A stretch of 32,288 nucleotides of DNA, taken from positions 1 through 32,288 of the forward strand of contig DAOVJB010000001.1 of NCBI GenBank assembly GCA_030673425.1. The letters run 5' to 3'. The translations under genes were made by a program, and so were the position numbers. The notes beneath the pieces are model-generated. The model did no database searches, was not told the DNA's origin, and was given only the letters and a program-made list of their open reading frames with translations. This document shows, piece after piece, positions 11,105 through 13,333 of the stretch; within the stretch, counting starts at the first letter, position 1; every line of letters begins with the position of its first letter. This DNA comes from Elusimicrobiota bacterium. GTDB lineage: Bacteria > CAYTYR01 > UBA6262 > DAOVJB01.

Positions 11105-13333
11105 TTACATACCGCTATATTTAGGTTCTATGGCAATATCGACGTTTGTTAATATGTCTCCCGGGTTTACTCCTGATACAGAAGCAGAACCGCTTTCGTA
11201 ATCAGACGTTGAGTCAGTTGTTACCGTTACTGTTCCCCCTCCCGAGATAGGGACATTGGAAATGCTGTAGTTGCCGTTAGTGTCAGTAGTAGTTGATTTT
11301 CCACCGCTTCTTACTCTTATATTTGCTACACCATTTCCGGTTTCAATATCTGTTATGATACCGCTTATAAAACAGATGTCTTTTTTTGTTAAAATCAGAT
11401 TTAAGTTAACAGTCTCATTATTTATTAAATCTATGTAACGAGAGCTGGAGTTATACTCAGTTTTTGATGCTCTTACCCTGATGCGTACTTTTGATATATC
11501 TAATGTACAGTCTACCGTTACCTCATCAGCAGGAGGTGGATCCGGGGGAAGATATTTAGTTTTACTGGTACTTATAATTTGCCGTACATCGTTTAATTCA
11601 TAAAATCCTGTCACACCGGATGAATCAGATGTATCTGTATAATATCCAAGGGAGGTACTACAGGAAACAGCAGCACCGCCAAGACCTATTCCAACGGTAT
11701 CTTCATAAATAAATCCTTGAATGTCTCCCTCTATGCCTCCCGGCAGCTGGAAATATATGCGTCTTTTTTCTCCTGCGTCAAAGTTTGGTCTTACGTTATT
11801 TAATTCATATGTTCCGTCGGCTTCTGTCCAGGCATAGGTCCATGTTCTGGAGTTGTAAGTACTGTCAAATTTCTCCGCATATATTTTTACTTCATCTTCG
11901 TTAGCTAATCTTGGTGGATTCTCACCTTCTTTAATCTCTACTGTTCCGATTACTGTAGCTATAGAGTCTGAAGGATAAAGTTCTATATCACAAACATTAA
12001 GCTGGTTCTTTCTTACAGCAATACTTTTTTCACCTTTAAGGTAGTCTGTCTTTGAAGCATAGATAGGTGGATTGGAAGAATATCTGGCACGATTCTGTTC
12101 ATACATGTTGTAATAAGCATAATCCCCGTTGGAATCAGTAACTACAGGATAACCATATAAGCCCGAGTCAATATGCGGGTCTGCTTCTACAGTTGCATTT
12201 TCAACAGGAAGAGTTGTTAGGGCATCGGTGATTTTACCTTTAAGCCAACCCAGACGTTCTACAGAAGGGGAAAAAACACCATGGGGCGGGTCTCCGACGA
12301 AGTCTGAGAGTCTTATCTTTGTATAACCCAATGCACAGTAACCCCATTCAAAAGCAGGGTCTTGTTCCTGGATAGTATAAAGAGAGCCGTTTTTTCTGTA
12401 TACTCTTCCCCAATAGTAACTTTGAGGTGGTCTGACATTACGGATGATATATGTATTTGAGAAGGGAGGTATGAGGTTGGAGGTATCTGTATAAACAGCC
12501 CACCACCTGGTTTGGGAACCCCAGTTGAAATATACCCTTACTCTTATATTGTCAATTTTTGTTATAATATTATTAGCACTATCATAAGCATCTGTTATAT
12601 TTCCTGTAATGTATCCAAGAGGGTCTAAAGTGATATCAGAAGCTGTGACGATTTCTGTAGCTTTGACAAGAACATCAACGCTTTTTTCCCAGGAGTAATC
12701 AGTGCTGTTATAATATCCCTGTTCAAACATTGTGCTTGTGGGTGATGAACCAAGTTTTTGCGCAATGATAGGTTGAGTGCCTGTTCGAACCCTGGTAAGG
12801 GTGAAAAAGCCGCTACCATCCGTAGTAGCAGTTATGTCAGGTCCTCCTATTAGTATATTAGGCGCCCAAACAGTAGCTCCCGGAATTCCATAGCCCACAT
12901 TATCTTTCACGTAACCTATTACTGTCCCGCCGGTTGCAGGGGAGCTGCCTTTGACGAGTTTCAAATAATAGTTTGATTGTTTCTGGTTAGTTCCTTCTTC
13001 CCATGATATTAGTACTCTAATTTCTCTTTCCCCTGAAGAGTTAATGTCTCCTATGGAACGACTTGCCGTTAAATTAGGAAATTCACTGCGTGTGATGGAA
13101 TTGGAGGAAAGAATATCTAACCCCTCAAAACTTGTGCCTGAAGCGGCCTTGGTTTCTTCTAAAAGTTGTTGGGCAAAATTGTCTGCTTTTATTCTGTTTC
13201 TATCGTGCAATGTGCTTATAGATAGCTGGCTTGTTATATGGAAGATTCCTAAGACAACAATAGTCAGTATAACACCGGCAAATGCTATTTCTATAAGAGT
13301 GAACCCTTTTTTGTTGTTCTTGAGGCAGAACAT
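11105..13333 (-). CDS. Giant minor pilin: prepilin leader + GspI/PilV-like head + multiple CarboxypepD_reg-like beta-sandwich repeats
   Basis: MFCLKNNKKG|FTLIEIAFAGVILTIVVLGIF is a canonical G|FTLIE prepilin site with Glu +5. aa ~30-130 are PilV/GspI-like (IKADNFAQQLLEETKA ... REIRVLISWEEG). There are then at least five copies of the carboxypeptidase-regulatory-like signature (GxVxD...G.PIxGATV...TDxxGxYxLxxV): TTDGSGFFTLTRV, VTDSNGDYAYYNM, TEADGTYELNNVRP, SGVTGFYELNDVR, TTDTNGNYSISNVP. RBS AAAGGAG. Confidence 0.7.
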   Translation of the reverse strand: MFCLKNNKKGFTLIEIAFAGVILTIVVLGIFHITSQLSISTLHDRNRIKADNFAQQLLEETKAASGTSFEGLDILSSNSITRSEFPNLTASRSIGDINSSGEREIRVLISWEEGTNQKQSNYYLKLVKGSSPATGGTVIGYVKDNVGYGIPGATVWAPNILIGGPDITATTDGSGFFTLTRVRTGTQPIIAQKLGSSPTSTMFEQGYYNSTDYSWEKSVDVLVKATEIVTASDITLDPLGYITGNITDAYDSANNIITKIDNIRVRVYFNWGSQTRWWAVYTDTSNLIPPFSNTYIIRNVRPPQSYYWGRVYRKNGSLYTIQEQDPAFEWGYCALGYTKIRLSDFVGDPPHGVFSPSVERLGWLKGKITDALTTLPVENATVEADPHIDSGLYGYPVVTDSNGDYAYYNMYEQNRARYSSNPPIYASKTDYLKGEKSIAVRKNQLNVCDIELYPSDSIATVIGTVEIKEGENPPRLANEDEVKIYAEKFDSTYNSRTWTYAWTEADGTYELNNVRPNFDAGEKRRIYFQLPGGIEGDIQGFIYEDTVGIGLGGAAVSCSTSLGYYTDTSDSSGVTGFYELNDVRQIISTSKTKYLPPDPPPADEVTVDCTLDISKVRIRVRASKTEYNSSSRYIDLINNETVNLNLILTKKDICFISGIITDIETGNGVANIRVRSGGKSTTTDTNGNYSISNVPISGGGTVTVTTDSTSDYESGSASVSGVNPGDILTNVDIAIEPKYSGM

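Follow-up and report, generated by a model that had tools for sequence, protein, structure and literature searches.

Modular pilins, whose N-terminal pilin module is joined to at least one domain that is not specific to type IV filaments, were defined by Raynaud et al. (2021, PNAS, PMC8179133), who found 1219 such proteins, distributed over 264 architectures. The third commonest architecture (IPR012902–PF13620, 66 proteins, one of them with two PF13620 copies) pairs the pilin module with a CarboxypepD_reg domain, multi-repeat giants such as an 860-residue Falkowbacteria pilin are listed, and a parallel with PilY1, in terms of 'carrier' and 'effector' modules, has already been drawn (PMC8179133). 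Here we describe a 742-residue protein encoded in a 32 288-nucleotide stretch of DNA from an Elusimicrobiota bacterium (GenBank assembly GCA_030673425.1, contig DAOVJB010000001.1, positions 1–32 288; hereafter the window), which has an N-terminal pilin module followed by six tandem β-sandwich modules and is thus a modular pilin by this definition. The general idea and the pairing of PF13620 with a pilin are known, and the novelty claimed in the initial annotation of this protein was therefore overstated. Pilins with PF13620 have not themselves been the subject of study, and in the literature searched nothing beyond the census of Raynaud et al. (2021) links CarboxypepD_reg with type IV pilins. 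What is new is a family with up to six or more such modules on a head in the PilV position, its three-gene cassette without PilY1, its control by a riboswitch and an annotation that misses its pilin nature.

The sequence and modelling data establish the 742-residue protein as a type IV pilin. Our interpretation, to which we assign a probability of roughly 60%, is that it is a core minor pilin in the PilV position with a built-in stalk serving as adhesin or spacer, that it sits at the pilus tip together with two partner proteins and without PilY1, and that a cyclic dinucleotide switches on its expression.

The gene is located at positions 11105–13333 on the minus strand (742 codons and a stop codon), exactly as initially annotated, and is supported by the list of open reading frames, Pfam, the family search and an AlphaFold2 (AF2) model. 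It has an ATG start codon with a GGAG ribosome-binding site ∼10 nt upstream. The N-terminus (MFCLKNNKKG/FTLIEIAFAGVILTIVVLGIF, where the slash marks the predicted cleavage site between Gly10 and Phe11) constitutes a class III signal peptide: its ten-residue leader ends in Gly (−1), and Phe (+1), Glu (+5) and a hydrophobic segment follow. The N_methyl family (PF07963) matches the full-length protein with 19.8 bits, slightly below the gathering score of 21.2, and the isolated 135-residue head with 22.7 bits, above it; the same family matches 21 of 24 heads of the protein family described below. The textbook class III signal (KKG/FTLIE) noted previously is thus borne out. The pilin module spans residues 1–135 (12929–13333, minus strand), as delimited by N_methyl, alignments and AF2. 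The modelled head contains the long α1 helix (residues 13–67), a short helix (72–75) and four strands (77–80, 88–94, 102–113 and 116–127), with predicted local distance difference test (pLDDT) values of ∼77–92, so that a helix-plus-sheet arrangement of the pilin type is retained beyond the N-terminal helix. The head had been thought to end at REIRVLISWEEG, in strand 102–113; both the additional strand 116–127 of the model and the joint alignment place its end near residues 128–135.

In this joint alignment, the head spans complete minor pilins of 120–180 residues end to end, including a C-terminal hairpin (V.V.V.W followed by a hydrophobic strand), and the short pilins stop exactly at the start of module 1 of the 742-residue protein. 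A search of a 5.8-billion-sequence database with the head profile (alignment A3, 24 sequences) gave 139 proteins at E ≤ 1e-3, all 122–216 residues long, which is not an unbiased length distribution, as this word-index search seems to favour query-like lengths and omitted the long family and even the 742-residue query. JGI or NCBI records give many of the matched proteins the name 'type IV pilus assembly/modification protein PilV', and one is named GspI. The top NCBIfam families over the 24 heads are ComGE (21/24), PilV (20/24) and GspI (17/24), all with scores below the cut-offs and confined to the helix; all 20 heads that match PilV are below the cut-off of TIGR02523. Further weak matches are to GspH (15/24), HpsC (8/24) and HpsB (7/24). 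ComGE, PilV and GspI are one another's counterparts in three systems, in each of which they are the smallest of the core minor pilins. An hhalign comparison of the head family with PilV-named proteins gave a probability of 98.7 (E = 3.5e-16) over columns 3–63 only, and a control comparison with the family of the 176-residue partner protein, which is J-like, gave 97.1 (E = 6.8e-11); on account of this limited coverage and of the score of the control, a PilV subtype is not provable by these alignments. PilV/GspI-type is consequently the best-supported assignment rather than a proven one. Of the PilV/GspI-like globular head proposed in the initial annotation, the complete small pilin head and the identity of the best named matches (PilV, ComGE and GspI) stand, whereas the subtype scores are far below the curated cut-offs.

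A repeat hidden Markov model (HMM) built from the family divides the remainder of the protein (residues 136–742) into six modules, of which modules 1, 3 and 6 are the most canonical and modules 2 and 5 contain insertions. All are encoded on the minus strand and are apparent in the AF2 model. Module 1 (residues 136–239; 12617–12928) is a CarboxypepD_reg domain, with the best PF13620 stretch at residues 137–201 and a repeat-HMM score of 32.1 bits. Module 2 (residues 240–360; 12254–12616) is divergent, with only its start motif matched by the HMM, and is modelled as all-β with pLDDT ∼84–95. Module 3 (residues 361–456; 11966–12253) scores 38.8 bits, and module 4 (residues 457–533; 11735–11965) is short and divergent, with a weak HMM match and the core motif at residues 500–516. 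Module 5 (residues 534–651; 11381–11734) is split by a PPDPPP-containing loop and matches the HMM partially at residues 536–595 and 616–651. Module 6 (residues 652–742; 11108–11380) is the most canonical of all, with a PF13715 match at residues 656–696, an HMM score of 81.7 bits and pLDDT 75–94 in both AF2 models. At the level of the whole protein, PF13620 (CarboxypepD_reg) scores 73.2 bits over three stretches (E = 2.2e-20; gathering score 32.3 bits), which is far beyond chance, and PF13715 (CarbopepD_reg_2) scores 41.6 bits (E = 1.3e-10; gathering score 32.2 bits). We take PF13620 to be a generic transthyretin/prealbumin-like β-sandwich. No peptidase or other catalytic domain was detected in the 742-residue protein by Pfam and NCBIfam, or in the family members by Pfam. 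The strict signature TDxxGxYxLxxV, of which at least five copies had been reported, occurs only twice (at residues 171 and 683); in a relaxed form it is present once in each of the six modules (TDGSGFFTLTRV, YTDTSN..YIIRNV, TDSNGDYAYYNM, TEADGTYELNNV, TDTSDSSGVTGFYELNDV and TDTNGNYSISNV).

A first AF2 run with a three-sequence alignment (mean pLDDT 40.7, with only residues 650–740 confident) was superseded by one with the 24-sequence family alignment, which has a mean pLDDT of 85.8 and a predicted TM-score (pTM) of 0.50. After the head, this model shows uninterrupted all-β modules in agreement with the six HMM units, and only ∼8 residues link the last strand of the head to module 1. A Foldseek search of the PDB with the whole model, which is dominated by the β-sandwich string, matched Bacillus anthracis TIE (E = 6.5e-11), SdrD B, SpaC, BcpA, SpaA, GBS52 and the MpAFP extender, which are prealbumin/CnaB-like domains repeated in the stalks of surface adhesins and sortase pilins. 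Low TM-scores accompany these matches, as a flexible, bead-like string would lead one to expect. The only enzymes among the matches are SpyCEP-type proteases, which are aligned through their stalk domains. A phmmer search of PDB sequences with the full 742-residue protein gave only chance-level matches. Pfam, AF2 and Foldseek therefore agree with the earlier description of ∼600 residues of CarboxypepD_reg-like β-sandwich modules, and the repeats resemble stalk domains rather than an enzyme. The extreme C-terminus (residues 735–742; 11108–11131, minus strand) has the sequence IEPKYSGM and conforms to a pattern, [LIV]x[PL]K.(G/S)G-[MLFI] followed by the terminal carboxyl group, that is found in most family members; examples from the family alignment A2 are IEPKYSGM, LEPKGGF, LTPKSGL and LHPKGGGI. 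Gly741 is at least 90% conserved among family sequences that are only ∼20–30% identical, and the conserved tail could be a docking or processing motif.

The 742-residue protein belongs to a family of giant pilins. A word-index search with the full protein gave two close relatives besides the query itself (76% and 68% identity; 736 and 740 residues), and an exhaustive profile search gave 659 matches, most of them to the repeats only. Twenty-two representatives (clusters at 50% identity) of 671–1019 residues align from residue 1; all 22 have a prepilin-type leader ending in a G/F-like site and 17 of them fit the strict expression G[FL][TS]x[ILV]E. CarboxypepD_reg was detected in each of the 24 aligned members, many of which also match SdrD_B, SpaA or Big_1. 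The entire head, including Gly−1, Phe+1, Glu+5 and the β-sheet, is conserved over the 24 sequences, down to ∼20% identity. A 461-residue relative in one of the related loci described below (L011) has only two detectable modules, so that the length of family members varies with module number. The homologue lengths, which had been proposed as a check of the initial annotation, are thus 671–1019 residues for the head-bearing relatives, with the 461-residue protein in addition. The 740-residue orthologue (P0003; 10001–12223 of locus L001) is named 'carboxypeptidase-like regulatory domain-containing protein' by NCBI, with its pilin nature unannotated. As the full-length N_methyl score is slightly below the gathering score, such proteins would also be hidden from InterPro-based censuses of modular pilins.

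The gene of the giant pilin is the first of three co-directional genes on the minus strand, while the rest of the window is transcribed on the plus strand. The two downstream products anticipated by the initial annotation are present: a 176-residue protein (10520–11050) and a 402-residue protein (9299–10507), with intergenic gaps of 54 nt (742/176) and 12 nt (176/402). A sigma-70-type promoter-like site with TG extension (TTGACA, 17 nt, TATAAT; 13548–13576, minus strand), assigned by its 12/12 consensus match only, precedes the genes, and an intrinsic-terminator-like hairpin with a 12-bp stem and a T-run, detected by a terminator scan (9218–9248, minus strand), follows the third gene closely, so that the trio resembles a single operon.

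The 176-residue protein is a prepilin (KKG/MNYIE, with Glu+5) in the PilW/GspJ position. It matches TIGR02532 with 21.1 bits (cut-off 16.3), it has homologues in six other cassettes, and its relatives weakly match ComGF and GspJ. Only two prepilin motifs are present in the window, in the 742- and 176-residue genes. The 402-residue protein (EEG/FALILV) does not contain Glu+5, has a 'ALYMADSGIEAAL' motif and is tentatively assigned as PilX/GspK-type from family homology and a weak match to the GspK N-terminus, its best named match (20.1 bits versus a cut-off of 130). PilX_N (PF14341) was not detected by Pfam in the 402-residue protein itself; among its relatives, two of eight match PilX_N weakly, and weak matches to FapA and MinC_C (β-solenoid) are also found. 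One relative (L011_498) exceeds the PilX_N gathering score (28.3 versus 25.5 bits), and its C-terminus is homologous to residues 242–402 of the 402-residue protein. A family search with this protein gave seven proteins, all 'hypothetical', and the sole match in the PDB is a weak one to ComZ (E = 0.3). The sequence has repetitive G-x-I/V stretches, and its C-terminal part is a probable β-solenoid. PilX and GspK are without Glu5 and cap the priming complex (PMC7541494), and a β-solenoid PilX has been proposed to replace the PilY1 plug in PilY1-free systems (bioRxiv 10.64898/2026.02.12.705559). The Verru_Chthon cassette (TIGR02596–02600) was considered as an alternative identity and rejected, with helix-level matches of 15–18 bits compared with the 256–332 required for proteins A and C.

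The same trio, consisting of a giant pilin, a pilin of ∼160–210 residues and a protein of ∼380–500 residues, is present in seven other loci (L001, L004, L005 with two copies, L006, L008, L009 and L011; L010 is a second retrieval of the identical locus L009). L001 is syntenic with the window, and L006 contains the same genes in a different order. The 402-residue protein is homologous to L005_406 (7e-59), L009_489 (6e-32) and L006_408 (1.5e-30), and the 176-residue protein to L004_199 (6e-25) and L009_206 (5e-13). A contig profile search of genomes re-found the L001 contig only, and a metagenome search with five sequences gave six loci, of which L011 alone was informative. Type IVa pilus genes adjoin the trio in two relatives. 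In L009, it lies between a major-pilin-like gene with a prepilin peptidase gene (Peptidase_A24) on one side and pilM-N-O-(P) with a secretin containing an AMIN domain on the other; in L011, pilM directly follows the trio; and L006 has two T2SSE ATPases nearby, including a PilT-like one of the retraction type. In L005, divergent cassettes are located back to back on one contig (61–4096, minus strand, 759, 170 and 406 residues; 4347–8259, plus strand, 738, 167 and 396 residues), which suggests alternative pilus tips in one organism. Domain scans revealed no PilY1-type gene in the window or beside the related cassettes, and the features of a PilY1/PilC adhesin, namely a C-terminal PilY1 β-propeller domain together with a type I signal peptide, are absent from the 742-residue protein, which has no such Pfam or NCBIfam match at E ≤ 1 and a class III signal. 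The contrast drawn previously with a separate PilY1-type tip adhesin is thus reasonable.

Between the promoter match and the start codon of the giant pilin gene lies a c-di-GMP-I-GGC riboswitch aptamer (RF03167; 13401–13516, minus strand), which matches the full model (1–80) with 67.8 bits (gathering score 59; E = 3.3e-14). Homologous GGC aptamers are located upstream of orthologues in L001 (two in tandem, 9732–9808 and 9833–9910) and in L002 (one, 4019–4133). Canonical c-di-GMP-I aptamers are found in L004, 64 nt before the giant-pilin gene (7858–7937), and in L009, ahead of the pilin gene that opens the type IV pilus cluster (5067–5192). In the window's aptamer, the P2 loop is enlarged by ∼36 inserted nucleotides, which include a near-duplicate (AAAGACAGCCGGGTG) of the 3′ strand (AAAGACAGCCGAGTTG). 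A candidate expression platform (13378–13416, minus strand) consists of an 11-bp hairpin (13385–13416) and a U-rich tract, with a leader minimum free energy of −20.9 kcal/mol (z = −4.0); it was not flagged by a simple terminator scan. Sixteen nucleotides of this hairpin also belong to the aptamer's 3′ strands (13401–13419). Since hairpin and aptamer would be mutually exclusive, the leader is predicted to act as a ligand-dependent ON switch by anti-termination. ON control of type IV pili by a c-di-GMP riboswitch is established in Clostridioides difficile (PMC6366702).

These features suggest the following scheme. Transcription from the predicted strong promoter would pass through the c-di-GMP-I-class riboswitch, predicted to be ON, so that the tip set is made when the cyclic-dinucleotide signal of the surface lifestyle is high. 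Prepilin peptidase would cleave the 742-residue protein after Gly10, and the α1 helix of the ∼135-residue head would allow it to enter a type IVa pilus, where it would fill the PilV/GspI position of a V-W-X-like minor-pilin cassette of three genes. The six modules, fused where ordinary PilV-like pilins end, may form a rod of ∼20–25 nm, as estimated from the typical length of an Ig-like domain. The three proteins would join through their α1 helices into a priming complex, with the 402-residue protein, which does not have Glu5, as the cap; this complex would start assembly, be pushed out on the growing fibre and stay at the pilus tip. From there, the β-sandwich string would project as an adhesin and/or a spacer stalk and replace a separate PilY1. 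A more specific version remains tentative in our view, at somewhat short of an even chance: a distinct PilY1-free type IVa pilus tip, composed of a pilin in the PilV position with an adhesin stalk of variable length, a PilW-like protein and a β-solenoid PilX-like cap, would be swapped in by the riboswitch, and the two L005 copies would be interchangeable tips that differ in specificity.

Several observations weigh against the proposed tip-displayed minor pilin. The head matches the PilV equivalog (TIGR02523) with 24.1 bits versus a cut-off of 52.2 (E = 4.2e-5) over residues 9–80 only and the GspI equivalog (TIGR01707) with 14.1 bits versus 44.35. The profile–profile alignments are restricted to the α1 helix, and searches of PDB sequences with two head profiles (A3 and A6) matched only the generic pilin N-terminal helix and no GspI or PilV crystal chain; such chains were probably missed because they do not include the helix. 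All six modules have the same type of fold, none at the end of the string stands out clearly as a separate binding domain, and nothing points to a ligand. The V-W-X complex is proposed from gene order and homology alone, the cassette contains only three minor pilins with no FimU/GspH-like gene evident in the window, and the window contains no major pilin, PilD, PilB/C or PilMNOPQ, so that linkage to type IVa pili relies on relatives at 23–25% identity. No riboswitch was found in L005, L006 and L008 in a search at E ≤ 0.01. The ligand of the GGC variant is not established in the literature searched, and class I variants with altered specificity (c-AMP-GMP) are known (PMC7266159). Superfolder GFP (sfGFP) on PilW3 or PilY1.3 blocked passage through the secretin in Myxococcus xanthus (PMC7541494). 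The main doubt is accordingly that a bulky addition may fail to pass the secretin; yet the single modules are narrow and are arranged in series.

The cassette could instead prime another type IV filament, such as a short pseudopilus resembling that of a type II secretion system or of Hps (hormogonium polysaccharide) export, with the giant subunit as a periplasmic or secretin-associated piston tip, plug or substrate adaptor. The weak head matches to GspI, GspH, HpsB and HpsC and the GspK match of the 402-residue protein fit such a filament. An I-J-K trio without an H-type member also recalls the GspI-J-K tip trimer. In addition, cyanobacterial PilX-EPS proteins in hps loci bear extra domains (bioRxiv 10.64898/2026.02.12.705559). 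We nevertheless consider this unlikely, as the neighbours in L009 and L011 form a type IVa pilus set (PilM/PilN/PilO and a secretin with an AMIN domain) rather than GspC/L/M, a PilT-like ATPase of the retraction type is near both in the window and in L006, a rod of ∼20 nm would be hard to fit on a pseudopilus confined to the periplasm, and ON control by c-di-GMP suits adhesion. Slightly less likely again is a sporadic location along the pilus shaft, where the protein would be an accessory, non-core modular pilin with stalks projecting to the side. Glu+5 is present, so that further subunits can follow, unlike in PilX and GspK, and Raynaud et al. could not exclude a location in the filament body given a flexible linker (PMC8179133). 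In the present protein, however, the modules begin right after the last strand of the head with a linker of only ∼8 residues; the head is of the smallest, PilV/GspI-like type, and its gene always comes first in a conserved trio with a putative capping pilin that does not have Glu5, as is characteristic of a core priming set.

The 742-residue protein might also remain unpolymerized, with its prepilin-like N-terminus, cleaved or not, serving only as the inner-membrane anchor of a periplasmic or surface β-sandwich protein such as a spacer in the envelope or a 'cork' that stops retraction. The slightly sub-gathering N_methyl score of the full-length protein, the name given by NCBI to the orthologue, which mentions merely a carboxypeptidase-like regulatory domain, and the absence of pilus machinery genes from the window would all accord with a simple anchor, which we regard as improbable, as an anchor leaves unaccounted for the conservation of the entire head across the 24 sequences, with its cleavage site, Glu+5 and β-sheet, and the strict co-occurrence with two pilin-type genes and, in relatives, with pilMNOPQ and pilD. 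The same NCBI name of P0003 and the Pfam family name are the only points that suggest a carboxypeptidase-related enzyme or a regulator of one; this reading was rejected and is effectively refuted, in view of the lack of a catalytic domain in Pfam and NCBIfam and of structural neighbours that are all either stalk domains with no enzymatic role or stalk regions within large surface proteins.

Other genes of the window bear on its regulatory and cellular setting. On the plus strand, beyond the operon's 3′ end at distances of 2.7–5.4 kb, are genes for a PilT-like ATPase with an N-terminal PilZ domain (3925–5298; T2SSE, E = 7.6e-39), which is ∼4 kb past the operon end and ∼8 kb from the pilin gene, and for a fusion of a CheY receiver with a CheX/CheC-like phosphatase domain (5335–6615). 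PilZ is a domain type that binds c-di-GMP. In combination with the riboswitch, this gene pair suggests a response to cyclic dinucleotides in pilus dynamics as well as in the make-up of the tip. A flanking block (13678–26519, plus strand), lysS-lolC/E-lolD-mcsA-mcsB-clpC-tamB (TamB, 1753 residues), is shared in synteny by the window and L001. It includes the McsA/McsB/ClpC arginine-kinase quality-control module, known chiefly from Firmicutes, in a genome whose markers TamB, LolCDE and MlaE suggest a diderm host. A 195-residue protein (205–792, plus strand) has two stretches matching the SpoVG domain (E = 9.7e-14), preceded by an apparent cleavable signal peptide (MKKSILLFSLLLVVLILNPLYLRAEV) that is unexpected on SpoVG, which is normally cytoplasmic.

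If the proposed arrangement is correct, the adhesive tip of the pilus would be an integral part of a core assembly subunit, without a docked, separate PilY1, and its reach would be tunable by gain or loss of β-sandwich modules. This would provide a simple, testable model of how pilus specificity adapts in uncultured diderm bacteria and a clean case of a riboswitch that governs the composition of the pilus tip and not the fibre itself. As orthologues bear the names 'carboxypeptidase-like regulatory domain-containing protein' or 'hypothetical', such tip adhesins would be invisible in current metagenome annotation.

Compared with known systems, the 742-residue protein shares with the PF13620 pilins of Raynaud et al. 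a pilin module with C-terminally grafted PF13620. Those proteins are census entries only, whereas here six tandem modules are borne by a carrier in the PilV position of a conserved V-W-X cassette, and the pilin signature is weak enough that an orthologue goes unannotated as a pilin. PilB (pilin and vWA) and PilC (pilin and lectin) of Streptococcus sanguinis are likewise modular minor pilins, which are experimentally proven and have an adhesive module that is predicted to be exposed at the tip; they differ in their monoderm host, in a single bulky module of another fold and in the absence of a V-W-X trio, and their sequence relatedness to the present protein extends no further than the N-terminal helix. 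In size and topology, the head matches PilV, GspI and ComGE, its best-scoring named families, although ordinary members of these end at ∼120–180 residues. The order of V-like, W/J-like and X/K-like genes is common to GspI-J-K and FimU-PilVWX, and the third protein is without Glu5, as are PilX and GspK; neither a FimU/GspH-type fourth member nor PilY1 is encoded alongside here.

The proposed role is similar to that of PilY1/PilC, i.e. to present a large, variable adhesive structure on the tip through a minor-pilin complex. PilY1 is not a pilin, whereas here the proposed adhesive part is covalently contained in one and no PilY1 domain was detected. CofB and TcpB of type IVb pili and ComZ of Thermus are also large minor pilins with extra β-rich domains located at the tip, but they belong to other pilus classes and their extra domains have other folds (a β-repeat/β-sandwich in CofB and a β-solenoid in ComZ). 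CofB and TcpB are moreover initiators that do not have Glu5, which the 742-residue protein keeps, and searches of PDB sequences with the protein or with the head profiles gave no match to either. Finally, the Cdi-2-4 riboswitch upstream of pilA1 in C. difficile likewise has a cyclic-dinucleotide aptamer, located in the 5′ leader of a pilus gene, and acts as an ON switch by anti-termination, as is predicted here. It is of class II and controls a major pilin, whereas the aptamer described here is of class I, in its GGC variant, and precedes a minor-pilin tip cassette.

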